The notes: generated by a model not told the origin, from the sequence alone. 64,000 bases of DNA from a virus (IMGVR_UViG_3300032897_000001:1-64000); one strand, 5' to 3'. Numbered from the stretch's first letter, positions 2,429 through 40,613 are shown. Numbers and translations: made by a program.

Positions 2429-2770
2429 ATGATTCGCCATGAATGGAAGATCGGGGACACAGCACTTGTGGTCGATTACGTGAGCACAAACGAGCCTTTC
2501 ACCGCGGTTAGAACGCACCCTGTGAAGATAGTGGGGTGGCGGCCAGAAGACGCCACAGACGGGCGTAATCAAGTCTGTGCCGTCGAATTCCCGAACGGTG
2601 TCCGGGGATATGTGCACGTTGCCCGGTTGTCCCGTGTCGAGGAAGAACTGAAAACGACTATCAACGACTTGGTGTCACAATACGGTTGGTCGGCGGTTGC
2701 TTCGGAAGTCAGCAGGCATGCGCCATATGGGGAGGTTGCCTGGGCGCTGGATGCGCGGCGCAAAACGTAG
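2429..2770 (+). CDS. Hypothetical protein, paralogue of 2070..2369
   Basis: AGGAG RBS; high similarity to the previous ORF. Confidence 0.75.
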   Translation: MIRHEWKIGDTALVVDYVSTNEPFTAVRTHPVKIVGWRPEDATDGRNQVCAVEFPNGVRGYVHVARLSRVEEELKTTINDLVSQYGWSAVASEVSRHAPYGEVAWALDARRKT

Positions 2771-24109: not shown

Positions 24110-24142
24110 CGCTGATCCTTAACACACGGCGTGCCGTGTGTT

Positions 24143-24339
24143 GTTCCCGCGGCAGGCGGAAAGCAGACGCCGCAGCAAGCAAGTGAGCCGGAATACGTGG
24201 GATAAAGGCTCTTGAGGTACGGAACCAGGACCACATTCGCGAAAGTCGCTCAAGTACCCTGCTCAACCGTGGTTGGGAAATCGCGGTTGAGTCCGTAGCT
24301 GGCTATTCCAAGCCGGGTTAGCGTCCGGCCCGCGGGAAC
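24143..24339 (+). ncRNA. Candidate ~200-nt structured non-coding RNA
   Basis: Closed by a perfect 10-bp stem gttcccgcgg/ccgcgggaac, with several internal helices. Intergenic and followed by a hairpin at 24342-24382. Strand assumed from the neighbouring genes. Confidence 0.55.
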
Positions 24340-24707
24340 CCTTTGCCATGTTTTTCAACAAAAACAGTAAAAGCATGGCAAAACCTTACACATCAACAGT
24401 TTAGCAACTGAAAGAACAACCCACATGGATGTCTTGACAGGCACCTTCTCCAATGAATCCGGAAAATGGAATTTCGACGATGATGAGGAACGCAGACGTG
24501 CCATAGAGGCGGAGGCAACAGAAAGACGTCGCATGGTCACAGCCAAACCCGAAGCAGATATCAGTCTGGCGCGCATCGCGGCGGATAAGGAAGTGCGAAT
24601 GACAGCGCTGCCTGTGGGTATAATCATACATCTTATCTGGGCACTCGCAGTAACGACAATTGGTGTCGCAGTTGCCTGTAATTGGCACAATTAAGGAGCA
24701 CGCTACC

Positions 24708-25166
24708 GTGGCACAGGACTGTGTAATTTGGGACTTGGACGGCACCCTGTTTGATACCACGCACCGTCAGCATCTTCTTCCGGACTGGAATGCGTTCTTC
24801 GTTGCATGCGTGGATGATCCGCCTATTGCACATGTGGTGCGCATTTTCGATCTGCTACATAAGGGGTATGACGAATCGGAGAGACTGTTGCCTGTCTTCG
24901 TTTCAGGACGATCAGAACAAGTCCGCGCACAAACAGAAGCATCCATTATCAAACATATTTACGAGCCTGCAGACAACCACACACTGCTTTTCATGCGTGC
25001 CCAAGGCGACCACAGGCCGGACAACCAAGTCAAGTCTGACATTCTTGACCAAATCCTGCACAGGGGTTTGAATCCTATTGTAGCATTTGATGACCGCGAT
25101 CAAGTCGTGAACATGTGGCGTTCCCGGGGAATACCATGTTTCCAGGTGGCAGAAGGAAAATTCTAA
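24708..25166 (+). CDS. HAD-family phosphatase resembling the phosphatase domain of T4 polynucleotide kinase
   Basis: WDLDGTL, VSGR, MRAQGDHRPD and FDDRDQVVNMWR motifs. Confidence 0.85.
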   Translation: MAQDCVIWDLDGTLFDTTHRQHLLPDWNAFFVACVDDPPIAHVVRIFDLLHKGYDESERLLPVFVSGRSEQVRAQTEASIIKHIYEPADNHTLLFMRAQGDHRPDNQVKSDILDQILHRGLNPIVAFDDRDQVVNMWRSRGIPCFQVAEGKF

Positions 25167-25616
25167 TGGCAATAAACAGAATTGAAAAACCTTCTCTCGA
25201 AACGATAGCTGAACGCGTGGCGATTCGAGTCCTGGGGGATCTTAGATCCAAGCGTGTCAAGACTGCTGACGCCAATGTGATCAAACATGCAGTTGAAGCG
25301 GACAGAGACTGTCCGACCGATGGTGCTGCACGCGGCTTGCTGATAGCAATGGTGAATACAAATATTGTCCGCAAGGCAGTAGACAATTATAAACGGCAAG
25401 ACAGTGCACAAGACAGTGCAAAGGAGTAACACGTTTGAGCTTAGAGCAGCGTATCAAGGACGTGCTTTCACCCACTAAATGGTGGGTGACCGGCACGATA
25501 GCGGCTTCTGTGGATTGTTCCATATTGGAAGCACATCATGCTTTGATTGCCCTGGAGCACAAACAAGTTGCAGTAGGGCAGCGCACCGATACAGGGCACA
25601 TGGAATGGAAGTTACG

Positions 25617-26222
25617 ATGAGTGACGGTGCTGTACACTGCATGTTGGATCTGGAAACGTGGGGCCAGCACACGGGATGTGCTATCCGCTCCATAGGTGCG
25701 GTTATTTTTGATCTTGAAGAGGATGGTGTTCCGGACAAGCCCGAAAACCGATTCTATGCCAATATCCGTGATCGGTCCTGTTGGCATGCCGGGCTGCATG
25801 TGAACAGAGATACCGCAGCATGGTGGGGCTGCCAATCGAAAGAGGCACAAGACGTTTTCGCGCAAAATCCCCAGGAACTCGGGGATGTTGTTCGCGCGTT
25901 CAATTCGTGGTTCCACGATAACCGTGTTAAGTATGTCTGGGCACAGGGTGCCAACTTCGATCCGCCCCTGTGGGAAGCCGCATCCCGTGCAATAGGCTCG
26001 GAACCTCCCTGGAAGTTTTACTTGGTGCGCGACACACGCACTGTGTATTATTTGGCTGATTTGGACCCTAGATCAATTACCCGGGCAGGTGTTTTTCATA
26101 ACGCGCTTGATGACGCTGTGCATCAAGTCCATTGCGTTCAGGCTGCTTATCGCATAATCAAGACGCGATCAGGTGACGCACAGGATGCTTTGATCAGTCA
26201 AGGACAAAAAACAAATGAGTGA
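25617..26222 (+). CDS. DEDDh 3'-5' exonuclease (Rv2179c/DUF5051-like)
   Basis: MLDLETWG, GANFD, RDTRT and HNALDDA motifs. Confidence 0.85.
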   Translation: MSDGAVHCMLDLETWGQHTGCAIRSIGAVIFDLEEDGVPDKPENRFYANIRDRSCWHAGLHVNRDTAAWWGCQSKEAQDVFAQNPQELGDVVRAFNSWFHDNRVKYVWAQGANFDPPLWEAASRAIGSEPPWKFYLVRDTRTVYYLADLDPRSITRAGVFHNALDDAVHQVHCVQAAYRIIKTRSGDAQDALISQGQKTNE

Positions 26223-27243
26223 AACAGAACTTCAAGAGTTGCTGGAAGAACACAACGAACTAGCACGGATCGCCGCAGAACTCGGATGCGATCACCATGA
26301 GCGCACGCACGCGTTTGAGCACCGTGAAGCCGCAATCGCGGAACTGAATGTCCTTGACAAGTCTCTTTATGAGGCGGTTTCCAAGATCTTGGACACATCT
26401 CCGCATATCAACGAGACAGAAGGACTTTCCGCGCCTCAGCTTTTGACGCTTTACGAAAATCTGCGTGCAGAAGCCGTTAACTTGGGCATTGATTGCCCGG
26501 TCATTGATACGCTTGTGGATCGGGATGACGGACTTTGGCACTGCCAACTTACCCGCGCACGTATTATTCATAAGCTTGTCGCAACAGAGATTGCGGCGAC
26601 TGCCGAATTCAATGCAAATGGTCCCGTGGCACAGACTATGGATGATAATCTGTGGCCGCCTCCATTTGAAGAATCTGCTGTTACCCCTGTAACCTATGAA
26701 TCCGGGCAGGAATCGCCACAGCGTGTGTGGGATGATGACGGATCTGTATCCGTTGTGCACACTCCTGATGAGGAAGAAAAACTTACCGAGGAACAGGAAG
26801 AAGAACTTCTAAAGGGTGTGGAACACGTCGCTACAAGTGCACCGCCAAAGAAGCCGGGCAAGCCACGTGGCAGGCCACGCAAGAACCCCGTAGAAGCAGT
26901 GCAAGCTACTACAGACAATGTTCCCCGGAAACGTGGCAGGCCGCTTGGTTCACGCAACAAAAAGGCTGCGGACAGCACAGAGAACCCACGTAAACTGTTG
27001 GGACAACAGGAACCGGTTAAGGTATCCAAGCGGCTTGGCAGGCCGCGTAAGAGCAACGGCACAGAAACCAAGACTCAGCGGGCTGTTGCTTTGATGAAGC
27101 GTGAAGGTGGTGCAACATATGCCGAAATCCTGGCAGAAACCGGGTGGACGGCTGTTTCTATCCCAGGGCTTGCTCGTAAGCAGGGAGTACAATTGCGTAT
27201 GGTAAAGGATCTGGGTTCTGTAACCGTTTACTATGCGTCCTGA
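26215..27243 (+). CDS. DNA-binding protein with AT-hook-like motifs and a C-terminal DUF3489-like wHTH
   Basis: KPRGRPRK, RKRGRP and LGRPRK; TKTQRAVALMKREGGATYAEILAETGW. Confidence 0.65.
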   Translation: MSETELQELLEEHNELARIAAELGCDHHERTHAFEHREAAIAELNVLDKSLYEAVSKILDTSPHINETEGLSAPQLLTLYENLRAEAVNLGIDCPVIDTLVDRDDGLWHCQLTRARIIHKLVATEIAATAEFNANGPVAQTMDDNLWPPPFEESAVTPVTYESGQESPQRVWDDDGSVSVVHTPDEEEKLTEEQEEELLKGVEHVATSAPPKKPGKPRGRPRKNPVEAVQATTDNVPRKRGRPLGSRNKKAADSTENPRKLLGQQEPVKVSKRLGRPRKSNGTETKTQRAVALMKREGGATYAEILAETGWTAVSIPGLARKQGVQLRMVKDLGSVTVYYAS

Positions 27244-27411
27244 TCCGACATATATTGTAGCGGCGCGCCACTGCCCTTCTGGGGAAGTTCACGAGTGGCG
27301 CACCGTTAACGAGCATGCTGCAAATTTGCTTTGCGGCATGCTCAAACGCAAGGAAAAACACGGCTATCCTTCGGACTACGTTGACATATCGTTGCGGCGG
27401 GAGAGTATAGA

Positions 27412-28569
27412 ATGCGATTCATGGCACAGCGGGGAGACATCCTTACCGCCCTGACACGTGTGGCCCGGGCAGTAGACGCCCGGGCAGACAAGGGGATGTT
27501 GCCTATCATGGGGAATGTCCTGATAACTCCCGATGAAGCGCGATCCTCAATAACGTTCACGGGAACGAATCTAAATGTAGAGGTTCGAGTTGAATCGGCC
27601 ATACAGGGGCTTCAACAGCCGGTCGAGATAGCGGCACCAGCGCACATCCTTTATGAGATTGTCCGCAGATTGCCGGATGGTGCGCGTATCGGCGCCGAAA
27701 CAGACGGCAACAAATTGGTCTTGCGTGCAGGACGCGCAAAGTTCTCCATGCAAATCCTGAATTGGCAGGATTTTCCGTTCTTGGGCAGCAAGGTTTCCGC
27801 GGAAAACTCCGCGCGGTTTGCTGTGAAAAGCGGAGAGTTTTGTAAGTTGTTGCGCACCGCGACATTTGCCGCGACGGACGATTCCCGCACCTTTCTCACA
27901 GGTGTCTATGTGCATGTCCCACGGGGACACATAGACGTGTTGCGGGCTGTGTCCACAGATGGACATCGTTTCATTCAGCAGGATGTTGGCATATACGATC
28001 CAGCATCAACGCACAGTTATAGTCCGGTATCCATACCGGGCTTTATCGTCCCCCGCAGAACAGCGGAGGAAGTGGCGGGACTTGCAAAAGATTTTGAAGG
28101 CATAGTGACGGTAGAAGTAACCCGCACATTGGTACGGTTCATGATCGGTGACACACGTATAACATCAAGGCTGGTTGACGGCACATTCCCTGAATATACG
28201 CGGATTATCCCACTGGGAAATGACAGGGTTATTGATGTAGATCGGTTGGCACTACGTGCAGCGCTGTCACGTGTTACAGCCGTGGCCGCAGAAGATGGTC
28301 AAGGCATTAAGACAGAAATAACAAATGACTTGCTGCGGCTGTCCGTGACATCGCAAACCGGCTGTAGTGCAACTGAAGAAATACCGGTTGAATATGACGA
28401 TGAATCCGTCATCCTTGGAATCAATTCACGATATCTTGGAGAGGTTTTGGACAATATCGGTGGGGAATTGGTGACACTGCGTCTGGAGGGTCCGCGGTCT
28501 CCGATTCTGGTTTCCAACAAAGACGACGCATCCACGTTGGCCGTGGTAATGCCAATGCAGCTTTCCTAA
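27412..28569 (+). CDS. dnaN: DNA polymerase III beta sliding clamp
   Basis: 385 aa; LPIMGNVLI, GTNL, AVSTDGHR, LVDGTFPEY and a C-terminal VVMPM. Confidence 0.93.
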   Translation: MRFMAQRGDILTALTRVARAVDARADKGMLPIMGNVLITPDEARSSITFTGTNLNVEVRVESAIQGLQQPVEIAAPAHILYEIVRRLPDGARIGAETDGNKLVLRAGRAKFSMQILNWQDFPFLGSKVSAENSARFAVKSGEFCKLLRTATFAATDDSRTFLTGVYVHVPRGHIDVLRAVSTDGHRFIQQDVGIYDPASTHSYSPVSIPGFIVPRRTAEEVAGLAKDFEGIVTVEVTRTLVRFMIGDTRITSRLVDGTFPEYTRIIPLGNDRVIDVDRLALRAALSRVTAVAAEDGQGIKTEITNDLLRLSVTSQTGCSATEEIPVEYDDESVILGINSRYLGEVLDNIGGELVTLRLEGPRSPILVSNKDDASTLAVVMPMQLS

Positions 28570-28582
28570 AGAGACGGGGACA

Positions 28583-29500
28583 ATGATCTATATGGGTTCG
28601 AAGGCGAGATATGCCGAAGAAATCATTGCTATTGCAACAGCGCACAGGAAGCCAAACCAGCCTTGGGTGGAACCATTTGTCGGCGGCGGCAACATAATAT
28701 GCCGTGTTCCCGCGCAACAGGGTCCACGTATTGGCGGGGATGTCAATTGGCGTATGATCGAACTATTAGACGCGATCGGTAATCAAGGCTGGGTGCCTCC
28801 CGAGAATGTGACGGAAGAACAGTACAAACATATCAAGGAAAATCCTGATTCGTATCCCCCGGAACTGGTGGCGTTCGTCGCGACGGCGGTTTCATTCGGT
28901 GCAAAATGGTTCGCAGGATACGCGCGCGGATCTGTAGATTATGCCGCCAATGGCGCTAAACAGGCTCTCCGAGAGGCGCCGCTTTTGCACGGTGCGAAGT
29001 TCGTTTATGCCCGATACGATGAACTTAGTATCCCACGGGATTCCATCATATACTGTGATCCTCCCTACACAGGAACTACAGGCTATGGCGGAGCCAAGAC
29101 GGATATCGATATAGGAGATGATCTAGCACTTAACACGTGGAACCGTGCCGCCTTTTGGCGGTGGGCAGATAAGATGGTGGCTGCGGGACACGACGTGTTC
29201 GTGTCGGAATACACGGGACCGCCTGCCAGCATCTATAAACCGTCTGCGGAACTTAAGCGCTTGCGTGCCGAAGCGGGCGAACGATATCGTATTGTGCAGA
29301 ATGACAAGTCGTCGCCCGAAGCATTACACACGGCATTCTCTGCTTTGCAGGCAATAGACGAGAGGATCAGTAAAGAAGCCGAAAAAGCAGCCGCACGGTG
29401 GGAAGTGCTGTGGCAGAAAGAAGTTGTCGGCGATTTTGATGCGCGCGGCGACAATAAACGAGAGATTGAGAAGCTTTTTCATAGGAGGGCGGGAACGTGA
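28583..29500 (+). CDS. D12-class N6-adenine DNA methyltransferase
   Basis: YMGSK, EPFVGGG and IYCDPPY motifs. Confidence 0.88.
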   Translation: MIYMGSKARYAEEIIAIATAHRKPNQPWVEPFVGGGNIICRVPAQQGPRIGGDVNWRMIELLDAIGNQGWVPPENVTEEQYKHIKENPDSYPPELVAFVATAVSFGAKWFAGYARGSVDYAANGAKQALREAPLLHGAKFVYARYDELSIPRDSIIYCDPPYTGTTGYGGAKTDIDIGDDLALNTWNRAAFWRWADKMVAAGHDVFVSEYTGPPASIYKPSAELKRLRAEAGERYRIVQNDKSSPEALHTAFSALQAIDERISKEAEKAAARWEVLWQKEVVGDFDARGDNKREIEKLFHRRAGT

Positions 29501-30087
29501 CATCTGCAATTGAGTTGCTGCCACCCGGAATACTTTCTACATGGAAGGCCGTTGTTGGCAGGAAGTGTGGGGAATGTTCGCTTTGCTGTAAGATCCTGCC
29601 TGTTCAAGATGCCAATCTTGATAAGGCACACGGCGTGCGCTGTAAGCACCAACGGCGCGGTGGGTGTAAGGTATATGCCTTCCGTCCGCAGAAATGCGCA
29701 CAATGGTCTTGCGGGTGGTTGTTGGGCATTGGCGTAGACGGGCTATCCCGCCCGGATCGCGCGGGATACATCATAGACCCTGTGGCGGATTACACGACTG
29801 TTTCCTGGTCAGGTCGCGCACCTTTTGATCTGCCGGCTGTGGTCGTATGGACAGAGGACCGTGAATCGTGGATGCACGATGAAGAGCTTAAAAAGTTCTT
29901 TGTTCGTTGGGCAGAACAGGGATTCAGTGCAATTGTCCGCTATTCTCCGACACTTGCGGTGTGCGTTTTTCCTCCCCCACTTACAGACGGTGGGTGGATT
30001 ATTACAGACCCTGTGGAAACGAAAGTACCGCTAGAAGACGCGGCACGCAAATTTGCGCGGGTTGCTGCAGCTATGGGAAAGAAATAA
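29497..30087 (+). CDS. YkgJ-like cysteine-cluster protein
   Basis: CGECSLCC...C...GCKVYAFRPQKC. Confidence 0.7.
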   Translation: MTSAIELLPPGILSTWKAVVGRKCGECSLCCKILPVQDANLDKAHGVRCKHQRRGGCKVYAFRPQKCAQWSCGWLLGIGVDGLSRPDRAGYIIDPVADYTTVSWSGRAPFDLPAVVVWTEDRESWMHDEELKKFFVRWAEQGFSAIVRYSPTLAVCVFPPPLTDGGWIITDPVETKVPLEDAARKFARVAAAMGKK

Positions 30088-30175
30088 CAAGATGGTTTTG
30101 ACAAATTTTTAAAATTTAATACTGGACAGATTACGGCACACCCACTACAAAAACAACTCTTCTGGAGAACAACAC

Positions 30176-30613
30176 ATGAGCAGCGTCAACAAGGTGATTT
30201 TGGTTGGGAATCTCGGGCGTGATCCTGAGATGCGGCGCACGATGAATGGCGGAGTGATCGCTAATCTTAGCATCGCGACATCCGAGTCGTGGAAAAGTAA
30301 GGCTACTGGTGCAAAGCAGGAACGCACAGAATGGCACCGTGTCGTTTGTTTCAATGAGGGTCTTTGCAAGGTTATTGAGAAGTATCTACACAAAGGATCA
30401 AAAGTATATATTGAAGGGAAACTTCAAACCCGAAAGTGGACAGATCAACAGGGCGTCGAACGCTATACGACGGAAGTCGTGTTGCCGCAATTCGGCGCAA
30501 CACTCGTCATGCTCAGTGGTAACAATAACGCCGATTCTGAGGATACCGCACAAGACGAGCAAACAGCCAGCCCAGCCCGTTACTACAGCATGGATGATGA
30601 AGTGCCGTTCTAA
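30176..30613 (+). CDS. ssb: Single-stranded DNA-binding protein
   Basis: [32 protein letters not shown] and tail DDEVPF. Confidence 0.96.
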
Positions 30614-30624
30614 TTCCCGAATCA

Positions 30625-30673
30625 GGCAAGGCATGTTGTGGTGTGGTGAGATAAATCGGGGTAAGGCAGGATG
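30625..30673 (+). repeat. Dispersed GGY-NN pentamer unit between ssb and the polymerase gene
   Basis: ggcaa ggcat gttgt ggtgt ggtga gataa atcgg ggtaa, then the punctuator ggca. Confidence 0.75.
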
Positions 30674-32644
30674 GCAAGCCGCGAACAACGGTATGAGTCT
30701 CGCGGCCAGATGGGACTGGGATTTTCAATAGAGGAAATAACAAGGGTTCCGCAATCCAACTGGGTTGCGCCCGATCCGTCTACATGGCCTGACAGGCTTG
30801 TAGGAGACATCGGGATTGACACAGAAACCCACGACTTAGGCTTGAATGCCAAACAAGGCGCGGGCTGGGCGTGGCGTGGCGGCGGGGAAGTTGTTGGCTA
30901 TTCCATCACTGCCGACAACTTCTCTGCTTATTTGCCCGTGGGACACGAAGGCGGCGGCAACTTGGATCGGAACCAAGTCCGCCGCTATCTTAACCATGTA
31001 CTTGCTGACACAAAGCAACGCAAGATTTTTGCCAATGCCGGATATGACATACCATGGGCTGAAAACGATGGCGTAAAAATCGCTGGCCCTGTCATAGACA
31101 TTCAAATGACAGAAGCGCTGCTTGATGAATACCGGCGCTCTTATTCCCTGGAAAATATTGCCCAGGACCGTTTAGGCCGCGGTAAGAATGAAGCGATGTT
31201 GGCGGATGCTGCGAAGGCTTTTGGATACGATCCAAAAGGCGAATTGTGGCGCCTGCATGCCAAATTTGTCGGTCCTTATGCGATCGAAGATTCTTCACTC
31301 CCCCGAGACATTTGGAATGTGCACAAACCTCTGATTGAAAAAGAGGGTCTTACTCGTATCTGCGATCTGGAACATGCATTGCTGCCGATGTACGCTGACA
31401 TGCGGCGCCGCGGTGTACGTGTTGACTTGGATCGGGTTGACCAATTGAAAACACGGTTCCGGGAAGATGTGCAGCACGAAATTGCGCAGATCAAGGATTC
31501 TACGGGCATAGATGTCGCTCTGTGGGAACCACAGAGCGTCGCACGTGTTTTGGATTATGTGGGTATCAAATACGATGTCACGGCTAAGACTCGGCAACCC
31601 TCCATAAAGAATGAACTGCTCAAAGCAACAGATCACTGGATCGCGAAAGCACTGCTCCGTGCCCGTGAAAAAGATAAACTTATCGGCACGTTTCTAGACG
31701 GGCAGTTACTTGGTAAGTGCCATGATGGCCGCGTGCACGGGTCCATTAATCCGCTGAAATCCGATGACGGGGGAACAGTTACCGGCAGAATTTCAATGTC
31801 GGACCCTAACCTGATGTTCATTCCTGCGCGCACTGCGGAAGGAAAACTAATCCGCGCGTGTCTTATCCCCGAGGAAGGTGAGGAATGGATATCGGTCGAT
31901 TACAGTCAACAGGAAGTACGGCTTCTGGTACACTTCGCTATTGTAGCATCCCGATACGTAAAATTCCCTCGGGAACTGCGGGAACGGTTGGCAACCGCTG
32001 TGGAGGCACAGCGCCGTTATCTAGAAGACCCGAACCTGAATTATCACAAATTTGTCGCGGAAATCACCGCGCTGGCCTATTCTATGGCCAAAGGCTTGAA
32101 TTTCGCGATCATCTATGGCCGCGGCATTGAAGAGACATCGCGCGCACTCGGCATAAGCTATGATGAAGCCAAGCGGCTGTTTAGCCAACACCGGGAAAAA
32201 ATGCCGTTTGCCCGGGCTATGGCTGACGCAGCACAGCGTATCGTCCGGGAACGTGGCTATATTACCACACTCTTAGGAAGACGGCAGAGATTCCCGTTTT
32301 GGGAGCCAGACGATTGGAATAAGCGCACCGATCGGTTGCTTCATGAACAAGAGGCACGTATGATGTGGCCGAATCAAAAGCTGGTGCGGGCCAGAATCCA
32401 TAAAGCATTGAATTCGGTTGTACAGCCATCGGCTGCGGACCAAATGAAGAAGGCAATGCTTGATATCTGGAATGCCGGCTATGGTGGGAGTGTCTTAATC
32501 CAGGTACACGATGAATTGAACCTATCCACGGGCAGTCGTAAGATTGCCAACAATGTCGCGGAAATCATGCGATCCACAGTGGAACTGGAAGTCCCTGTGT
32601 TAACAGACATCGCATATGGAAAGAACTGGGGTGAAGCAACATGA
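30671..32644 (+). CDS. Family A DNA polymerase with a 3'-5' exonuclease domain
   Basis: IDTET, TVTGRIS, DYSQQEVR (motif A), KGLNFAIIYG (motif B) and QVHDEL (motif C). Confidence 0.93.
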   Translation: MASREQRYESRGQMGLGFSIEEITRVPQSNWVAPDPSTWPDRLVGDIGIDTETHDLGLNAKQGAGWAWRGGGEVVGYSITADNFSAYLPVGHEGGGNLDRNQVRRYLNHVLADTKQRKIFANAGYDIPWAENDGVKIAGPVIDIQMTEALLDEYRRSYSLENIAQDRLGRGKNEAMLADAAKAFGYDPKGELWRLHAKFVGPYAIEDSSLPRDIWNVHKPLIEKEGLTRICDLEHALLPMYADMRRRGVRVDLDRVDQLKTRFREDVQHEIAQIKDSTGIDVALWEPQSVARVLDYVGIKYDVTAKTRQPSIKNELLKATDHWIAKALLRAREKDKLIGTFLDGQLLGKCHDGRVHGSINPLKSDDGGTVTGRISMSDPNLMFIPARTAEGKLIRACLIPEEGEEWISVDYSQQEVRLLVHFAIVASRYVKFPRELRERLATAVEAQRRYLEDPNLNYHKFVAEITALAYSMAKGLNFAIIYGRGIEETSRALGISYDEAKRLFSQHREKMPFARAMADAAQRIVRERGYITTLLGRRQRFPFWEPDDWNKRTDRLLHEQEARMMWPNQKLVRARIHKALNSVVQPSAADQMKKAMLDIWNAGYGGSVLIQVHDELNLSTGSRKIANNVAEIMRSTVELEVPVLTDIAYGKNWGEAT

Positions 32645-33014
32645 GCAACAACAACAACAATAATAATAATGGCACGCTATCTACACTGATAACCGTGCTG
32701 TTCATCATCAGTGTGATCATGCTGATCATGTCCATACTTGGGACGAATCATTAAGTATGTTTATGAAACGCGCATCAAGGCGACGTATTAAAGCCCGTGT
32801 ACGTTTGTATGGATGGGTGTCAAAGCCTGTGCTTTGGGAATACGACTTACCGCTGCCGAAAGGGTGGGTGCGCGATCCGCGGGGACTGGAAATCTGGTGG
32901 AGCCCCGATAAACTGCCGGATTTTCTTGAAAAAATGCAGCGATTCATCGCTGCTGAGCGAACGCTGTGGGAGGAAATCTCCCACAGCAACCTTTGATTGA
33001 ATAACGATATTTTA

Positions 33015-33335
33015 CTATACTGAACCGCGTTTCCGGGCAGCCGCACGGAACTTGCGCGCGTCTCGGGAACTGTACCAGCCAAACACGCCACAGCTATCTC
33101 TGTAAGCACAGTGGTCCTTTATGGCTGCATCTTCCACAGCGGTTATTGCCGCCCGAGTGCGATCAAGCGCGGCGAATGCCAAATCCATGCACGAGAGTTT
33201 GCGCAACTCATTTGGTGTAATGCGATCGTGGTACACATTGTGTGCTTGTGCCGCAGTCCAAATGCCTTCGTAGCACTCCTGGTGCTCTTTGCGCGCGCGA
33301 TTCATCAACTGCATGTGTTCTGTGAGTGTGGGCAT
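33015..33335 (-). CDS. Hypothetical protein divergent from the early region
   Basis: AAGGAGG RBS on the minus strand. Confidence 0.65.
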   Translation of the reverse strand: MPTLTEHMQLMNRARKEHQECYEGIWTAAQAHNVYHDRITPNELRKLSCMDLAFAALDRTRAAITAVEDAAIKDHCAYRDSCGVFGWYSSRDARKFRAAARKRGSV

Positions 33336-33465
33336 ATCTGCCTCCTTTCTCCGTCTTGTGTGTAGCGCGATATTCGAAATGCCTCCAGTGGATTTTTTGG
33401 ATTTTTTTCAAAAAACTTGTTGACGTTTCCTGGGGAACGATTATTATCTGTCTTGTCAGACAGAG

Positions 33466-33557
33466 ACGAAAGGCGGTGACACGGGCAGGTCCAATGGTAA
33501 TCGGCAGAACTCAGTCCCCTAACGTATGAACGGGAAAGGACTGGTGGGAGGCGAAAA
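33466..33557 (+). ncRNA. Conserved 92-nt leader RNA, copy 1 of 4 (others at 34825-34916, 37712-37803 and 40222-40313)
   Basis: Near-identical copies between promoter and hammerhead, with a compensatory stem swap cagtcc/ggactg versus agactc/gagtct. Confidence 0.75.
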
Positions 33558-33613
33558 GGTCGAAACGGCGGAGATTCCGCCGTCGTGCCGTGAGGCGGCA
33601 CCTGATGATGGCC
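33558..33613 (+). ncRNA. Type II hammerhead ribozyme 1
   Basis: ggtc GAAA cggcgga-gat-tccgccg UC gtgccg-tgagg-cggcac CUGAUGA u ggcc. Confidence 0.9.
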
Positions 33614-33630
33614 AAACAGGGAGAACAACT

Positions 33631-34089
33631 ATGTCGGTTTGTCAAATTTGTGGTAGAGCGGTCAAATCCAAAAATGGCGTGATCGCACACCACGGCTTCA
33701 AACGTCCCGGGCAGGGCTGGCAGACTGCTTCGTGTTACGGAGCGAAATATCGCCCCTACGAAGTAGCGAAAGACGCTTTAGAGAACTACTTGCCTGAAGT
33801 CAAAAAGTGGATGAAAATCAAACAGGAGTCGTTGAATTCTCTCCTGGACTGTCCGCCCGATAAGCTTGACGCAGTCATCAAGCTTGATGCTTCGGGCAAA
33901 ATGAAGAGTGTCGTTTATACCAAACCCGACAATTTCGATAAGAATGACAACCAGCACTACGTGCAACCGCACTCATATGCGGGGGAGTACCGAAGCAAGG
34001 TACGGCACCTGCGGATTCAGATTGCGGAGATGGTTCAAGACATCGGATATCTGACGCAGCGGATAGCCGATTGGAAAGGAGAGGCGTAA
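33631..34089 (+). CDS. Early hypothetical protein with a Cys/His motif
   Basis: RBS after hammerhead 1; CQICGR...IAHHG...ASCYG. Confidence 0.75.
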   Translation: MSVCQICGRAVKSKNGVIAHHGFKRPGQGWQTASCYGAKYRPYEVAKDALENYLPEVKKWMKIKQESLNSLLDCPPDKLDAVIKLDASGKMKSVVYTKPDNFDKNDNQHYVQPHSYAGEYRSKVRHLRIQIAEMVQDIGYLTQRIADWKGEA

Positions 34090-34467
34090 GCCTCTCCCAT
34101 GCTTTGCTCGGGGTGATTTGAAAGTTTTTTGAAAAATCTTCAAAAAACAGGTTGACGTTTCCTGGGGAATGATTATTATCAATCTTGTCAGACGGGCCGG
34201 ACGGGCCAGCCCAAAAAGGGGAGTAACGATTATGGCGGAACAGACAATGACTTGGCGGATCGTGCGGCGCGCATATTCCCAATACCATCTTGTTGAAGAG
34301 GGAATCGCGTCATGGCAGGATGCACAGATCCGGTCAATGGATTTGCAGTACAAGAATAAAGACGGGGAGTATCTCGTGATCCGGGCGGATGCACCTAATC
34401 ACGATTACAGTGGCCCCAATTACGGCCAGTCCCCCTTTGATTACCTCTAGGAAAAGGAAGAACCTCT

Positions 34468-34737
34468 ATGAAACTTTCGGCAGAACAACTCGCGATTCTT
34501 CGTGCTCTTGATGGCGGACCCGAGGAAACTGGCATTATCGCCATTTTCGCCAATGTGTCGGGGTACAGTGTGGGAGCACGGAACCGAAAGGCACGGAACC
34601 TGCTTTTGGAACTGAAATACCACGGTTTCGTCGAGTACGCGGATAGTGAGAAGCCGTGGATCTGGCAGCGTACCGAAGCAGGAACCGCGGCTATTGCGGG
34701 AAGCCCGACACAGCGCCAACCCCGCAGAAAGGCGTAA
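34468..34737 (+). CDS. Small wHTH-like protein related to 13025..13297
   Basis: Shared G.VEY.D....W.RT.AG motif. Confidence 0.55.
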   Translation: MKLSAEQLAILRALDGGPEETGIIAIFANVSGYSVGARNRKARNLLLELKYHGFVEYADSEKPWIWQRTEAGTAAIAGSPTQRQPRRKA

Positions 34738-34916
34738 ATGGGCGCCAAAAGTTTTTTGAAGTTTTTTCAAAAAATTTGTTGACGTTTCCTGGGGAATGTT
34801 TATTATCAGTCTTGTCAGACAGAGACGAAAGGCGGTGACACGGGCAGGTCCAATGGTAATCGGCAGAACTCAGTCCCCTAACGTATGAACGGGAAAGGAC
34901 TGGTGGGAGGCGAAAA

Positions 34917-34972
34917 GGTCGAAACGGCGGAGACTCCGCCGTCGTGTCGTAAGGCGGCACCTGATGATGACC
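34917..34972 (+). ncRNA. Type II hammerhead ribozyme 2
   Basis: Full core GAAA...GUC...CUGAUGA; stem II ggtc/gacc. Confidence 0.9.
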
Positions 34973-35219
34973 AAAGGAGAAAGACACCATGCCACGTATG
35001 AGAATCACAATCGAAGTCGAGACCGCTTCATTCAAGAACATGGGAGAGCGGAACAGATTCAACAAAAAGGTGTTGGAAGTGGCCCAGGCCGCTTTCCCCA
35101 CCATCGGGAAACAAGAACTCGTTTTTGTCTCGACTGAAGACATGTCCGGGCATGCCATCTGCCTGGGTGAAGACGGTATGCCAACCAACGCCGTTCGTTA
35201 TTGAAAGGAGCAATGATCC

Positions 35220-36107
35220 ATGAAAATCACTCTCAACACCGCTGCTTTTTGGGCAGCGTGCGCGATGTCGGCATTTGCAGGCATTGTCGCAACGTCCGGG
35301 CTTGCCAGCTTCATTCCCGGTGTCAACGTCCTGGGCGTTAATGCCGTGTGGGTGATGGGTATCTTATTCGAGGTTGGCATGCTGGTTGCGTTTGCCTATC
35401 TTCACAAGCATTGGCAGACGATCAGCCCCAGTCTCAAATACGGACTTGCCGTGCTGGCAAGCATTGTTATTGTGCTTGACATCATCGGGGTAGCCGGCCA
35501 ATTTAGCCAAGGCTACCAAGCACGGCGGCACGCCGCTGATGCGGCAAACATGGTGGCAGTGACCAATGCAGCGGCGCACATTGCGCAAGCCGAAGACGCT
35601 GTTGCAGAGCTTGACAGACAGCTTGCTGCGGTAAGCGAGGAAATCAACAAAATTTCCGATGCACAGATCCGCGCCAAGGACGATAGAGACCGTGTCAAAG
35701 CAGCACGGGCACTCAAAATTGAGGCAGAGTCCCGGAAGACTGCTTTGCTCCAGAAACGGGCGGAAGCGTCTAGCGTTCTGCTTGCGGCACGGACCGAAAA
35801 GGGTGCGGCTGATGCATCTGCGGTTACCGGATCGGGAGAGTTTGCCGCGATCCAGTTTGCGGCACAGTCACTCGGATGGAGCGAAGATGCTGTTGCCCGT
35901 GTGATAATCTGGATCTTGTCCGGGCTGGCGTGCTTGTTTGCACCATGCTTGATTGCAGTGTCAGGACACGAAACTACTCCCATCAAAGTCAAGGCGCCCG
36001 AAAAGGTGCTGACTGCCCGGCAGATTGCGGCGCGTAAGGGCGCGGAAACCCGGAAGCGCAACAAGGCTCTCAATGCCAAAAAGAATGTTGTGGCGTTGAA
36101 GGCGTAA
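35220..36107 (+). CDS. Membrane protein with a coiled-coil region
   Basis: Three N-terminal hydrophobic helices, a coiled coil, one further TM helix and a basic tail. Confidence 0.75.
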   Translation: MKITLNTAAFWAACAMSAFAGIVATSGLASFIPGVNVLGVNAVWVMGILFEVGMLVAFAYLHKHWQTISPSLKYGLAVLASIVIVLDIIGVAGQFSQGYQARRHAADAANMVAVTNAAAHIAQAEDAVAELDRQLAAVSEEINKISDAQIRAKDDRDRVKAARALKIEAESRKTALLQKRAEASSVLLAARTEKGAADASAVTGSGEFAAIQFAAQSLGWSEDAVARVIIWILSGLACLFAPCLIAVSGHETTPIKVKAPEKVLTARQIAARKGAETRKRNKALNAKKNVVALKA

Positions 36108-36166
36108 GGCCGAAACACAGGACAGGTGCCCTGTGTCGCACCGTAAGGCGGTGCCTGATGATGGCC
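36108..36166 (+). ncRNA. Type II hammerhead ribozyme 3
   Basis: Core intact; stem III cacagg/cctgtg and stem I gcaccg/cggtgc. Confidence 0.9.
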
Positions 36167-36597
36167 AAAGGAGAGCACAACATGTGTGGTGACAAGAAAA
36201 CACAGATCGCGGGAATCATTGATTTCTGCAGAGAAAATGACCTGACATATATGAGGTACAACGGAAGGGGGATGTTCAGTCGGGAATGCTTTGCGGTTAG
36301 CATCCCGGACATAGGCACGCTGTGGGACTTGGCAGCATTCCTTGGTGACCCTGCGTTGCCCACACCTAGCACAGACCAGCTTGGCAGAGGCTACGTGGCC
36401 TATTGGCCCGATCATTTCCCTATGACTGGCCCTCTCGGGACCTATGTTGACTTACAGCTTCGCGGGGAAGGCGTGGATTGATCCTGGCGCCGAAGATTTT
36501 TTGAAAAATCTTCAAAAGCCTGTTGACGTTTCCTGGGGAAAGGCGCACAGTGACTTTGTTGGCACCGGGGTGGCGCCTGGAAAGAGGAGGAACTGTC

Positions 36598-36867
36598 ATG
36601 GTGATGCGTGCACTGCGCTGGAAGCGCAAGTTTCGTGCAGTAAAGCTTTCCAAACCCACCAAGACCCTGTTTTACGGCGTGTTCTGCCGTGGCAACCTTG
36701 TTGTCAAGTGCCGCAACGAAGCTAGCGCGATCGACTTTATCGAACGCCAGACCGCAGAGGATCGCGAATGGCGCCGCAGGCAGGTTCTTGAATATCTCGC
36801 AGAACGTGCTCAGCGGGCTGTTGTGGTTGACACTGAGCAGGCGCCCGACCAGTTGGAACTGTTCTAA
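36598..36867 (+). CDS. Small basic early protein ending in a beta-clamp-binding-like motif (QLELF)
   Basis: GAGGAGG RBS; C-terminus APDQLELF. Confidence 0.65.
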   Translation: MVMRALRWKRKFRAVKLSKPTKTLFYGVFCRGNLVVKCRNEASAIDFIERQTAEDREWRRRQVLEYLAERAQRAVVVDTEQAPDQLELF

Positions 36868-36869
36868 AA

Positions 36870-36924
36870 GGCCGAAACACGGGATATCCCGTGTCGCACC
36901 GTAAGGCGGTGCCTGATGATGGCC
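36870..36924 (+). ncRNA. Type II hammerhead ribozyme 4
   Basis: Core intact; stem III cacggga/tcccgtg. Confidence 0.9.
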
Positions 36925-37803
36925 AGAAAGAGGAGACAAACAAATGCGTGTATATTTTAACCCCGATGTGGTCGCGGCATATGGCGATATGGCCGATACC
37001 CCTGAATTCAAAGTCGGTTTTATGGATTTCTATTTAGGAGTTCTCAACAATTCTGTGCCGGATCTTTTGCGGGATGAAAAATCCGCAATCGCTTGGCGTT
37101 CTGGGTGGCATGCCGCACAAGCGTGCGCCGAAAGTTTTTTGAAAAATATTCAAAAAGACTGTTGACGTTTCCTGGGGAATGCTTATTATCAATCTTGTCA
37201 GACGGGCCGGACAGACCGAGCCAGACCAGAAAGAGGGGAGACGGTTATGGGTTCCTATGAAATCATCCGCCACGAAATCAAGAATGTGAAGGCAGCGAAA
37301 GCGGCGTTCGCCCGGCTGGAAGCCGCATACAAAATGGTTGATGCGGAATACGTCAACGATGAGTCTTGGCAGGAGTTCCACGGCGTTGAGTACAAATTCG
37401 GCGGTTTGGCGTGGTGGAAGGCCCGTGTGCTGGCAATGACCATCAGGATTGAGTGGCAGGCTAGTACCCGCGTGTTCATCTCTCCCCCTTCCGAGGAAAG
37501 CCGCAACAAGGACTCTTTTGAAGGTGGTCACCACGAAGTATACACCGATCGCAAGGCATTGGCTGCAGCGCAAATCAAGGTGGCCGCGTTGCTCCGCGGC
37601 TAACCCCACGGCGCCCATGGACTTTGTGGGCGCCAAAAGTTTTTTGAAGTTTTTTCAAAAAACTTATTGACCTTTCCTGGGGAATGCCCTAGAGTAGCTT
37701 TGTTGGTTGGAACGAAAGGCGGTGACACGGGCAGGTCCAATGGTAATCGGCAGAACTAGACTCCCTAACGTATGAACGGGAAAGAGTCTGTGAGAGGCGA
37801 AAA

Positions 37804-37859
37804 GGTCGAAACGGCAGAGACTCTGCCGTCGTGTCGTAAGGCGGCACCTGATGATGACC
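37804..37859 (+). ncRNA. Type II hammerhead ribozyme 5
   Basis: Core intact; stem III cggcaga/tctgccg. Confidence 0.9.
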
Positions 37860-37875
37860 AAAGGGAGTACCGATC

Positions 37876-38172
37876 ATGAAAAACGAAGCATTTGAAGCCG
37901 CTCTTGCAGCATTCTTGGTTGCCGCACAAGCTTTGTGCGATGCCAGCGGCTCTTACAGCTATACCAAACTGTCTATGCAATACGGGCGCCGTTATGTCCG
38001 TATCGTCGCAGAACGCTCCGGACAACAGTCCGTATGGGGATTTGTGGACACCACAAACGGGAATGTGCTTAAGGCAGCCAGCTGGAAAGCACCCGCTACC
38101 AAATATGCACGCGGCTGCATTTATGACGAAAATCGGGGTTGTGGCCGGGCAAGGTGGATGGGTGTTGCTTAA
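37876..38172 (+). CDS. Conserved phage early protein
   Basis: GRRYVRIV...SVWGFVD...GNVLKAASWKAPA...ARG, a pattern I recognise as a recurrent small phage protein. Confidence 0.7.
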   Translation: MKNEAFEAALAAFLVAAQALCDASGSYSYTKLSMQYGRRYVRIVAERSGQQSVWGFVDTTNGNVLKAASWKAPATKYARGCIYDENRGCGRARWMGVA

Positions 38173-38176
38173 AGCA

Positions 38177-38232
38177 GGCCGAAACGGCGGAGATTCCGCC
38201 GTCGCACCGTAAGGCGGTGCCTGATGATGGCC
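38177..38232 (+). ncRNA. Type II hammerhead ribozyme 6
   Basis: Core intact; stem II ggcc/ggcc. Confidence 0.9.
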
Positions 38233-38473
38233 AAAAGGAGAAAGACAATGGCAGAATTTATCGTGTCAAAATACAAAATCGGCGACATCGTAACTTTGAA
38301 AAGCGGCGAGGTGTTGCGCATTACCGCGATCCGCGATCGCGCCCACTACACCAAGGCCGCATATAGTGCGGTGGAAGTCCGTAAGGGTAAGCGTCCTGGT
38401 AAAGAACGTCTCTTCATTGAGGCGGACGCGTCATGACGCGGCATAACGAAATTCAAAACGCTGGGGAACAAAA

Positions 38474-40105
38474 ATGACACAGACCAAAAGCCAGATTGTT
38501 GCGGCGGATGTCGCCGCTTTGTTGCGGGCGCGGAACCCGCTGATTTGGATCGTTACCCGGGAAGAATCTCGGGTTGAAACCAACATTGTGCAGGCCGCGG
38601 CTGCAGCGGGATATGGTGCCTGCACATGGGATGTCGCACAAGGCGCACGCACTATCGACGGGGCACGGGTGCCGGGTAGTGATGGCACTGAGGATGTCAG
38701 CGCCATGTTCGCGATGATAAAGGCACAATCCGAAAATGTGCAGCGTGCACAACGGTGCGTGTGGATCATGCGAGACTTGGCGCCATGGCTGCAAGGGCCA
38801 ATCGGCATGGTCACGTTGCGACAGCTTCGGAACCTTGCCCGGGCACTGCCCGGGACCGGGCGGAGCACGTCACAGGCAATCGTCGTGTTGACGACTTCCC
38901 CAAATGTCCCGGACGAATTGGAGGGACACGCGGTAGTGATCGAATGGCCCTTGCCCGATCGCGAGGAAATTGCGGCAATCCTTGACGCTGCAATCACGGC
39001 ACTGCCCGAAAACGATGAGAAAGGCGTGCCCGTTCGCGGTCCCGCAACACCAATCAATGGGGTTCGCGAGGCAGCAATTGATGCGGCGGTGGGGCTTTCC
39101 GGAGAGGAAGCCGCGGCGTGTTTTGCAAAATCCTTGGTACAGATCCGGAAGATCGACCCGCCGCTGATTACCAAGGAAAAGCGCCGCGTCATCTCCAAGG
39201 CAGGTGTTTTGGAGTGGTTCGAACCGCTTTCTGGCGGGTTGGGCGCTGTGGGTGGTCTCGACAATCTAAAAGATTGGCTGATTGCCCGGCGCGCCGCTTA
39301 TTCGCCACGTGCGCGGGCTTATGGTCTGCCAGCGCCAAAAGGTGCACTCCTTGTTGGTGTCCCCGGGTGTGGTAAGTCGCTCACAGCAAAGGCTGTTGCA
39401 ACAGCCTGGGGCGTGCCCTTACTTCGGATGGACCTGGGCGCATTGAAGAGTAAATATGTGGGCGAATCCGAAGGGAACCTTCGGAAAGCGTTCCAGATCA
39501 TTGAAGCCATGGGGCGGTGCGTCGTGTGGCTGGATGAAATTGAAAAAGCCTTGGCAGGCGCAACGCAAGGCGCTGCAGATGGTGGCGTGTCATCGGATGC
39601 TTTGGGCGCCATTCTAGGGTGGATGCAAGATCGTAGCGGACAGGCGTTTGTCGTAGCTACTGCAAACGACATCTCTGCGCTGCCTCCGGAATTGCTCCGT
39701 AAGGGGCGATTTGATGAAGTGTGGTTCGTTGATTTGCCGAACCCTGATGAACGGGCAAGCATCCTGTCCGCCGCATTACGGGCACACGGTCGGGACACCA
39801 AAACGCTTGTGTCCAAAGAACAGGATTCCGCTGCTGTAGTTGCAGCAACGGAAGGCTTTTCCGGAGCCGAAATTGCGGCACTGGTTCCGGACGCCATGTA
39901 TACGGCATTCGGAGATGGGGAACGGGAAATTACCGTGGATGATCTGTGGTTTGCTGCAAGGCAGACTGTGCCGTCAACCCGGACATCAGCAGAGAAGATT
40001 GAGAAATTACGGGAATGGTCCCGCAGTGGTCGCGCAAGGCTTGCCACACGGACAGTTTCCAAGGCGGAGACTACACAAGGAACCGGGCGCAAACTCGACA
40101 TCTGA
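38474..40105 (+). CDS. Ycf46-like AAA+ ATPase
   Basis: Walker A GVPGCGKS, Walker B VVWLDEIEK, SRH TAND...LPPELLRKGRFDE, and a degenerate N-terminal AAA domain. Confidence 0.88.
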   Translation: MTQTKSQIVAADVAALLRARNPLIWIVTREESRVETNIVQAAAAAGYGACTWDVAQGARTIDGARVPGSDGTEDVSAMFAMIKAQSENVQRAQRCVWIMRDLAPWLQGPIGMVTLRQLRNLARALPGTGRSTSQAIVVLTTSPNVPDELEGHAVVIEWPLPDREEIAAILDAAITALPENDEKGVPVRGPATPINGVREAAIDAAVGLSGEEAAACFAKSLVQIRKIDPPLITKEKRRVISKAGVLEWFEPLSGGLGAVGGLDNLKDWLIARRAAYSPRARAYGLPAPKGALLVGVPGCGKSLTAKAVATAWGVPLLRMDLGALKSKYVGESEGNLRKAFQIIEAMGRCVVWLDEIEKALAGATQGAADGGVSSDALGAILGWMQDRSGQAFVVATANDISALPPELLRKGRFDEVWFVDLPNPDERASILSAALRAHGRDTKTLVSKEQDSAAVVAATEGFSGAEIAALVPDAMYTAFGDGEREITVDDLWFAARQTVPSTRTSAEKIEKLREWSRSGRARLATRTVSKAETTQGTGRKLDI

Positions 40106-40313
40106 TGCTGGTTAGCGAAGCTGTGGCGGGTGCTGACAGCTTCGCTAAGTTTTTTGAAAAATATTCAAAAAACTTGTTGACGTTTCCCGAGGGAACCCTT
40201 AGGATAGCTTTATTAGTTGGAACGAAAGGCGGTGACACGGGCAGGCCCAATGGTAATCGGCAGAACTCAGTCCCCTAACGTAGGAACGGGAAAGGACTGG
40301 TGAGAGGCGAAAA

Positions 40314-40368
40314 GGTCGAAACGGCGGGTTCCCGCCGTCGTGTCGTGAGGCGGCACCTGATGATGACC
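40314..40368 (+). ncRNA. Type II hammerhead ribozyme 7
   Basis: Core intact; upstream of the 56-aa ORF at 40386..40556. Confidence 0.9.
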
Positions 40369-40557
40369 AAAGAGGAGCAAACACAATGAATACCAAAATG
40401 AAGAAGTTCAGTGCCGTTGCCTTCAAGGGCGAAGATCGGTTCATGTTTTCGTTCGATTGGCCCAACTGGTATCGTATCGAAGAAGAGGCGCGGCGCGTGC
40501 TGGATGAGAAGGGTTTCCCGGATTGGGAGTTCCGTAGCATCGATATTCGCGCATAAA

Positions 40558-40613
40558 GGCCGAAACGGCGGATATTCCGCCGTCGTGCCGTGAGGCGGCA
40601 CCTGATGATGGCC
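40558..40613 (+). ncRNA. Type II hammerhead ribozyme 8
   Basis: Core intact; lies between the stop at 40556 and the RBS of 40631. Confidence 0.9.

Follow-up and report, generated by a model that had tools for sequence, protein, structure and literature searches.

A family of promoter-proximal leader RNAs in soil and wetland phages, with an invariant core and a possible put-like role

Introduction

To our knowledge, very few RNA elements reprogram host machinery without a protein, namely, put, EAR, and, recently, canT, all of which emerged from genetics in cultured systems. Other elements near the 5′ ends of transcripts offer further points of comparison. The nut sites of phage lambda consist of boxA plus boxB, the phage SP82 leader and the cryIIIA STAB-SD element are polypurine or Shine-Dalgarno (SD)-like stabilizers of the 5′ end of an mRNA, and synthetic ribozyme insulators of the RiboJ type combine a promoter, a variable leader, a hammerhead, and a ribosome binding site and give the message a uniform 5′ end. 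The put RNAs of phage HK022 lie just downstream of early promoters, occur twice per phage, and are active untethered (PMC9378689). Here, we describe a 92-nucleotide (nt) leader RNA that occurs in four copies, at 33466, 34825, 37712, and 40222 on the plus strand, in the phage record IMGVR_UViG_3300032897_000001, each with a promoter on its 5′ side and a type II hammerhead on its 3′ side. The window, by which we mean the whole stretch of DNA analyzed, comprises the first 64 kb of this 100,794-bp IMG/VR record, which derives from a wetland metagenome. The four leader copies represent a family of promoter-proximal leader RNAs in soil and wetland phages that has not been catalogued before.

Results

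All four copies, which had been noticed in a preliminary description of the window, were located at 83 to 85 bits by a covariance model (R1) built from the alignment of homologs described below, and the model found no other match in the 100.8-kb genome. Copy 1 (33466..33557, plus strand; 84.6 bits) and copy 2 (34825..34916, plus strand) are identical over 92 nt. Copy 4 (40222..40313, plus strand) differs at 3 of the 92 positions and copy 3 (37712..37803, plus strand) at 11, 10 of which are accounted for by a swap within the stem. From its 5′ end, copy 1 consists of an SD-like tract (33470-33478), a small hairpin (33483-33492), a conserved single-stranded block (33493-33510), the main hairpin (33511..33544), and a purine-rich tail (33545-33557), all on the plus strand. 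The covarying stem of the main hairpin pairs 33511-33517 with 33538-33544 and encloses an invariant core at 33518-33537; the hairpins of copies 2, 3, and 4 lie at 34870-34903, 37757-37790, and 40267-40300, respectively. The swap in copy 3 replaces five consecutive stem pairs, CAGUC/GACUG, with AGACU/AGUCU, and pairing is fully kept. A comparison of 33511-33544 with 37757-37790 showed that the changes of the swap are not scattered: its four inner base pairs are reversed end for end (AGUC/GACU to GACU/AGUC) while the orientation of the loop is unchanged, which suggests the replacement of a patch rather than stepwise drift.

Covariation was assessed in an alignment of 17 sequences from other phages. 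In this set, the structure is 93.6% paired, and four stem pairs show 8 to 10 double changes each, with up to five pair types. The observed covariation was reached by none of 500 shuffles, and slid registers were only 12 to 47% paired. Given the covariance scores and the margin over the shuffles, the four-copy leader pattern is far beyond chance, and the compensatory evidence for a structured RNA, first pointed out for the swap in copy 3, now extends to the stem as a whole. Judged from this alignment, only one hairpin is well supported. Single-sequence folds of the leader did not differ from those of shuffles, and alternative pairings, which would join the 5′ ACGAAAGG or the block to the core or the leader to stem I of the hammerhead, appeared in some lineages only.

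Because the pair beside the loop is always C-G, the invariant part of the hairpin amounts to 22 nt, CCCUAACGUNNGAACGGGAAAG. One way to draw the inner core is with CC/GG and CGU/ACG pairs, bulges of UAA and AAA, and an NNGA loop; as the pairs do not vary, covariation neither supports nor refutes them. Possible resemblances are to the 11-nt tetraloop receptor, the sarcin-ricin loop, 16S helix 45, and a NusA KH site (GAAC), none of which we claim to be present. Likewise, we take the apical U-N-N-G-A to fit the T-loop pattern without claiming a T-loop.

The leader had no match among the 4,227 models of Rfam 15, which include RAGATH motifs, riboswitches, and ribozymes, when 10 kb was scanned at E values up to 10, and a scan of the whole window at gathering scores returned nothing for it. 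Scanned alone at E values up to 10, it gave only noise at 6 to 11 bits, in keeping with the earlier remark that it was not recognized as a known family. There was also no match to the leader of the homolog in contig L032 (described below) and none in 12 related loci at E values up to 1. A separate match was seen on the same strand of L032, about 540 nt downstream of the leader: the segment L032:264-348 (minus strand) matches the alphaproteobacterial suhB/mmgR small RNA (sRNA) at 31.3 bits, below the gathering score of 41, and carries a CCUCCC motif and a terminator. It is possibly a hint to the host group and to a second small RNA of this phage.

Homologs were sought by exact-pattern scans of viral and soil metagenome contigs with the inner 20-mer. 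The viral contigs contained three further lineages, represented by L005, L007 (with the same sequence as L006, L008, and L009), and L010, and the metagenome scan recovered twelve more contigs from about seven lineages (L025, L026/L027, L028/L038/L039, L030/L033, L031/L034, L032, and L035). The family rests on only about eleven independent lineages. In every accepted homolog, the 20-mer lies inside a stem of different sequence, and the covariance model, applied to the other phage records and contigs, found exactly one match in each. The contigs L024, L029, L036, L037, L040, and L041 carry the 20-mer without an enclosing stem and were set aside as chance background. A pattern lacking the leading CC produced 13 extra matches, none with a flanking stem, and a pattern that combined block, gap, and core produced 118, all of them due to chance; the 23-nt pattern of the 5′ block had zero matches. 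A scan of a genome collection covering 185,579 species returned one chance match only, and therefore this collection holds no prophage copies. A blastn search of GenBank phages with the cassette gave no match.

Core patterns in which some positions were freed uncovered one true variant, L189, a relative of L030 that has CAA in place of UAA. The same patterns returned a doubtful group, in which the core-like sequence CCCAUUCGUGGGAACGGGAAAG is found at L184:2148-2169, L185:11554-11575, L187:7936-7957 (minus strand), and L190:2199-2220. At these loci, it is flanked by complementary CAGAC/GUCUG arms and follows a TATAGT box at about 45 nt, and one 44-kb phage has two copies. This element could be distantly related to the family or resemble it by chance.

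Wherever upstream sequence was available and a sigma-70-like promoter was recognizable, the distance between its predicted start and the core is about 45 to 85 nt (in most lineages, 45 to 75 nt). This placement holds in L007, L026, L027, L030, L031, L032, L033, L034, L035, and L039 and is less clear in L005 and L025; in L010, the leader is longer than in other lineages. The leader is not tied to a particular gene. Elsewhere, it is followed by members of a protein family of about 75 amino acids (L032, L027, and L005), by membrane proteins (L031 and L034), or by other genes, and the four window genes that lie 3′ of the leaders are mutually unrelated and have no known function according to Pfam and PHROGs. 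A profile search with the 75-amino-acid gene found about 200 relatives, a word search only the query itself, and at two further viral loci with relatives of this gene there was no leader.

A conserved single-stranded block of 17 nt (consensus RYGRNAAYCGGCNGRAC) stands just 5′ of the stem, and a purine-rich tail, typically GCGGAGAGGAGA and in the window phage GUGGGAGGCGAAAA, just 3′ of it. In some lineages, the block is preceded by an optional small hairpin with compensated changes (GGG/UCC and GGG/CCC in the window; GGGGC/GCCCC in L030 and L033; GGGCC/GGCCC in L189). In nearly all lineages, the distance of an SD-like tract from the core is almost constant (−43 to −48 nt), and a second tract lies at +26 to +29; in L030, the first tract lies at −63, with a hairpin of about 17 nt inserted between tract and core.

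These tracts could mean that the leader docks a ribosome. The SD-like tract, frequently together with an AUG, would load a 30S subunit on the nascent RNA and place the hairpin at the mRNA entry channel, and the outcome would be either an untranslated leader that is shielded from Rho and RNases or a supply of ribosomes to the second tract. The fixed distances of the tracts agree with such a role, as does their calculated pairing to the 3′ tail of 16S rRNA, at −6.5 to −12.6 kcal/mol. Eight of 13 lineages have an AUG after the 5′ purine tract, and in four of these the stem starts 18 to 19 nt past it; furthermore, the tail of the leader doubles as the actual SD sequence of the next gene in L025 and L032. 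However, the AUG is replaced with ACG or GCG in L030, L033, L189, L026, and L027 and with AUA in L034, and the spacing between SD and AUG is 12 to 14 nt in four lineages. Neither the length and frame of the open reading frame (ORF) nor its peptide is conserved, the swap in copy 3 changes the peptide, and, where a hammerhead follows, the mRNA gains nothing from a ribosome that is bound to the leader. We therefore consider ribosome docking unlikely as the function of the leader. A leader peptide or upstream-ORF attenuator was tried and rejected, as 5 of 13 lineages lack the start codon, the stop codons fall at four places, and two residues are altered by the copy 3 swap.

The promoter-proximal position reported for the window copies was confirmed. 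Each copy starts 19 to 20 nt past the −10 hexamer of a repeated sigma-70-type promoter, TTGAC(G/C)TTTCC..., of which the genome has 7 copies, all on the plus strand and confined to 33.4 to 40.2 kb. The promoter of copy 1 (33420..33447, plus strand), one of these seven, combines TTGACG and TATTAT at a spacing of 16 nt and matched the consensus at 10 of 12 positions. The same consensus scan identified the promoters of copy 2 (34779..34806), copy 3 (37667..37695; TTGACC, 17 nt, TAGAGT), and copy 4 (40177..40205; TTGACG, 17 nt, TAGGAT), all on the plus strand. Upstream of five of the seven early promoters, about 25 nt from the −35 hexamer, we observed a perfect palindrome, TTTTTTGAA-N5-TTCAAAAA(A), at 34125-34149, 34752-34776, 37135-37159, 37640-37664, and 40150-40174. 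Its T-run forms the end of the terminators of the preceding units, and the palindrome could be the operator of a regulator or an UP element.

The three promoter units that lack a leader are short (≤0.65 kb each). Leaders are carried by a 1.7-kb and a 2.4-kb unit and by the last unit, in which copy 4 heads a long gene block running rightward; the promoter motif does not recur further downstream. In G001, G003, and G004, a single leader copy heads a gene block of 13 to 19 kb that runs in one direction.

At an E value of 1e-5, the window phage and the other carriers have almost no proteins in common, and an all-against-all blastp comparison of the ORFs of 15 carriers revealed no shared protein partner. 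The only early gene that the window phage has in common with another carrier lies in the second leader unit, at 35220-36104 (plus strand); its 295-amino-acid product is 26% identical over 293 amino acids to that of the first gene after the leader of L031 (E value of 5e-6). It has no Pfam or PHROG match, and its hydrophobic N terminus makes a membrane protein probable. These results bear on the idea that the leader is bound by an RNA-binding protein of the phage itself, either an N-like antiterminator or a translational repressor of early genes. The position at the head of early operons speaks for it, and so does a layout reminiscent of nut, in which a single-stranded block precedes a hairpin of varying stem and constant loop. 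On the other hand, proteins common to the carriers are almost absent, the sole shared early gene looks like a membrane protein gene, and the occurrence of one and the same loop in unrelated phages favors a partner of host origin, all of which makes a phage-encoded partner improbable. Since the 22-nt core is identical in phages that share almost no proteins, the leader probably has a conserved host machine as its partner.

A type II hammerhead begins exactly at the end of each leader copy, as the preliminary description had indicated for all four. The first (33558..33613, plus strand) scored 30.5 bits with Rfam model RF02276 (E value of 0.0056), and its core and stems could be parsed; those after copy 2 (34917..34972) and copy 4 (40314..40368) were identified by the RF02276 scan and a parsed core, and that after copy 3 (37804..37859), from repeat family D2, by its parsed core, all on the plus strand. 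In total, the genome has eight type II hammerheads, all of them between 33.5 and 40.6 kb and with covarying stems I, II, and III, and RF02276 detects five of the eight at 22 to 32 bits, below its gathering score of 37. Cuts are predicted after 33584, 34943, 37830, and 40339 and would yield RNAs of about 128 to 131 nt from the predicted start sites. This agrees with the RNA of about 130 nt with defined ends that had been proposed; we infer its release from the anatomy only. That the RNA is early and abundant, as had also been suggested, is an assumption.

The eight hammerheads (33558-40613) fall into two subfamilies. Those linked to leaders combine GGUC and either GACC or GGCC in stem II with GUG(C/U)CG in stem I, while three of the four intergenic ones have stem II GGCC/GGCC and stem I GCACCG. 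As the subfamilies differ by leader linkage, it follows that the cassette of promoter, leader, and hammerhead was duplicated as a whole.

Duplication as a unit would suit an element with no function of its own, that is, a passenger hairpin on a mobile promoter cassette or else a new self-cleaving ribozyme, and new ribozyme classes have indeed turned up next to hammerheads. A neutral element, however, would not hold 22 nt invariant and a stem compensated across phages whose proteins are unrelated, and no known ribozyme model matches the leader. We regard the absence of an own function as quite improbable, and the ribozyme variant of this explanation has only a very slight share in it.

Hammerheads adjoin the leader in all four window copies (type II) and, as a type III-like form, in L026 and L027; there is none in about eight other lineages. 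The type III-like hammerhead was read by eye directly after the leader at 2462-2510 (plus strand) in L026 and on the minus strand of the locus in L027, 20 to 67 nt 3′ of the core. It comprises GGGUC, stem I GCCCGG..CCGGGC, CUGAUGA, a 2-bp stem II, and GAAACCC, with all core nucleotides present, and its open stem III is formed with the last bases of the leader tail; Rfam did not report it at E values up to 1. L026 and L027 have the same promoter-leader-hammerhead cassette with different genes attached, and in L027 the AUG of the next gene lies 1 nt past the hammerhead. On the minus strand of L007, we found a perfect 16-bp hairpin 36 to 76 nt 3′ of the core, and on the minus strand of L010 a perfect 16-bp long-range helix, 16 to 140 nt 3′ of the core, that closes a domain of about 95 nt. 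Both helices may be RNase III sites and thus the counterpart of the window hammerheads. In L025, L032, and L039, the leader continues directly into a gene without a cutting device.

Because all four copies that the hammerheads would cut off have been kept intact, the function of the leader cannot depend on attachment to the mRNA. Function despite severing argues against a simple stabilizer or translational enhancer in the window phage.

One product of such cutting could be a free sRNA of about 130 nt that acts in trans, accumulates early, and acts on a host factor (a defense protein, an RNA chaperone, or an RNase, for example) by binding or titrating it. It would have a triphosphate at its 5′ end and, at its 3′ end, the hairpin of hammerhead stem III with a cyclic phosphate. 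The defined ends and terminal hairpin that the predicted cuts would generate, the production of the same RNA from four promoters, the hammerheads or 16-bp helices that follow the leader in L026, L027, L007, and L010, and an invariant core in unrelated phages, which suggests a conserved host partner, are all consistent with this idea. Trans action would not, however, need a fixed place next to the promoter at the head of operons, the other phages have a single copy, and three lineages lack a cutting device between leader and gene. We find a trans-acting sRNA somewhat doubtful.

The variety of what follows the leader also raises the question of a riboswitch-like sensor, with the core and its flanks as the binding site for a small molecule or ion and the downstream SD, hairpin, or hammerhead as expression platform. 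A conserved core with varied downstream elements is typical of riboswitch classes, and here the core is followed by an SD (L025 and L032), by two hammerhead types (the window and L026/L027), or by hairpins or a terminator-like stem (L033, L035, L007, and L034); in both hammerhead types, the leader tail adjoins the open helix. Against a sensor, no conserved alternative pairing by which the SD or the ribozyme could be sequestered emerged from our fold comparisons, the genes after the leader are unrelated, have no known function, and hence suggest no ligand, and covariation supports one helix only. A sensor is distinctly unlikely on this evidence. A more specific form, in which the leader is a natural sensor domain for a metabolite, an ion, or a host signal and has been coupled in evolution to interchangeable outputs, including the two hammerhead types, strikes us as rather remote. 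If it were correct, the window copies would be the first hammerhead ribozymes known to be ligand-controlled in nature and would gate the expression of early phage genes.

Discussion

We tentatively favor the possibility that the leader is a nascent-RNA element that acts on the transcribing polymerase, as HK022 put does. The leader is the first thing transcribed from a sigma-70-type promoter that we assume to be early, and it would fold as it leaves RNA polymerase and dock on a conserved host machine, most likely the elongating polymerase itself. Docking would make the polymerase withstand pauses and terminators throughout the operon. Since an RNA of this kind would stay bound without a tether, the hammerhead could cut and free an mRNA with a standard 5′ end while the action of the leader continues, and because the effect would be in cis, one copy would be needed per long operon. 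Action in cis fits the copy pattern, in which the leaderless units are short, the longest units carry a leader, and the gene blocks of G001, G003, and G004 extend over 13 to 19 kb. Support for a put-like element thus comes from the conserved position, the independence from particular genes, the implied host target, a function that survives cutting, the copy pattern, and the precedent of put.

The preliminary description had offered two functions, a decoy or inhibitor in the form of an early small RNA and a cis-acting antiterminator analogous to put. The occurrence in unrelated phages, the promoter-adjacent position, the long gene blocks, and the untethered activity of put (PMC9378689) favor the cis-acting, put-like alternative over a private decoy, both being candidate functions.

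Several points weigh against a put-like element. No consistent intrinsic terminator was present in the 1.5 kb scanned after each leader, and the unit headed by copy 1 is only 0.65 kb long. A polymerase target leaves the fixed SD-like tracts unexplained; they suggest the ribosome instead. In two lineages, the tail is used as the SD of the next gene. The invariance of the core is partly an artifact of finding homologs by exact pattern. As for the resemblance to put itself, model R1 found nothing above 6.5 bits in HK022 24000-34000, where the immunity region is expected from lambdoid gene order and put sites are not annotated, and the architecture of the two RNAs differs, as set out below.

The leader is a compact and easily synthesized candidate for a new protein-free element that reprograms host machinery, and it comes from unrelated uncultured phages. 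It owes this status to its clear covariation, its 22-nt core, its presence in unrelated phages, and its place as the first segment transcribed from what we assume to be an early promoter. A self-cleaving ribozyme has been placed behind the leader twice in evolution, which provides a natural case on the purpose of phage hammerheads, namely, to separate a working leader from the message. Should the leader instead bind the ribosome or a ligand, it would still represent a new class of regulatory RNA.

Among known systems, the polypurine stabilizers of SP82 and STAB-SD have in common with the leader purine-rich, SD-like tracts near the 5′ end and no requirement for a translation start. Unlike the leader, which is cut off, they protect an attached mRNA and have no invariant structured core. 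The insulators of the RiboJ type share the layout of the window cassettes, but this explains the role of the hammerhead only, and here it is the removed leader that is the conserved part. RAGATH motifs, which are found next to hammerhead or twister ribozymes, provide a parallel in that a conserved structured RNA adjoins a hammerhead in a phage, and in a loose sense the leader is RAGATH-type; in contrast to them, it matches no RAGATH model at E values up to 10, and most members of its family have no adjacent ribozyme.

The lambda nut sites and the leaders of rrn antitermination are closer, as in these too a linear block and then a hairpin with variable stem and constant loop stand near the start of an early operon. 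The leader, however, has neither a boxA consensus nor a GNRA-like pentaloop; in their place, it has the block given above and the loop UAA / CGU-NNGA-ACG / AAA. Moreover, nut loops vary with each phage's own N protein, whereas the loop of the leader is identical in unrelated phages.

Like the leader, the HK022 put RNAs, putL and putR, lie just downstream of an early promoter, one per operon and in more than one copy per phage, and they need no phage protein. Put remains active once severed from the transcript (PMC9378689), in agreement with a leader that would be cut off by a ribozyme. As antiterminators, the nascent put RNAs bind RNA polymerase, at the zinc-binding domain of the beta-prime subunit, and suppress its pausing and termination. 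Put is about 70 nt long; its two long stem-loops are arranged as a V, and stem I contains a triplex, whereas the leader has one covarying hairpin plus an optional small one and long, conserved, single-stranded, purine-rich flanks. The leader falls within neither the put nor the nut group and matches no Rfam family; the arrangement works most like the put or nut leaders.

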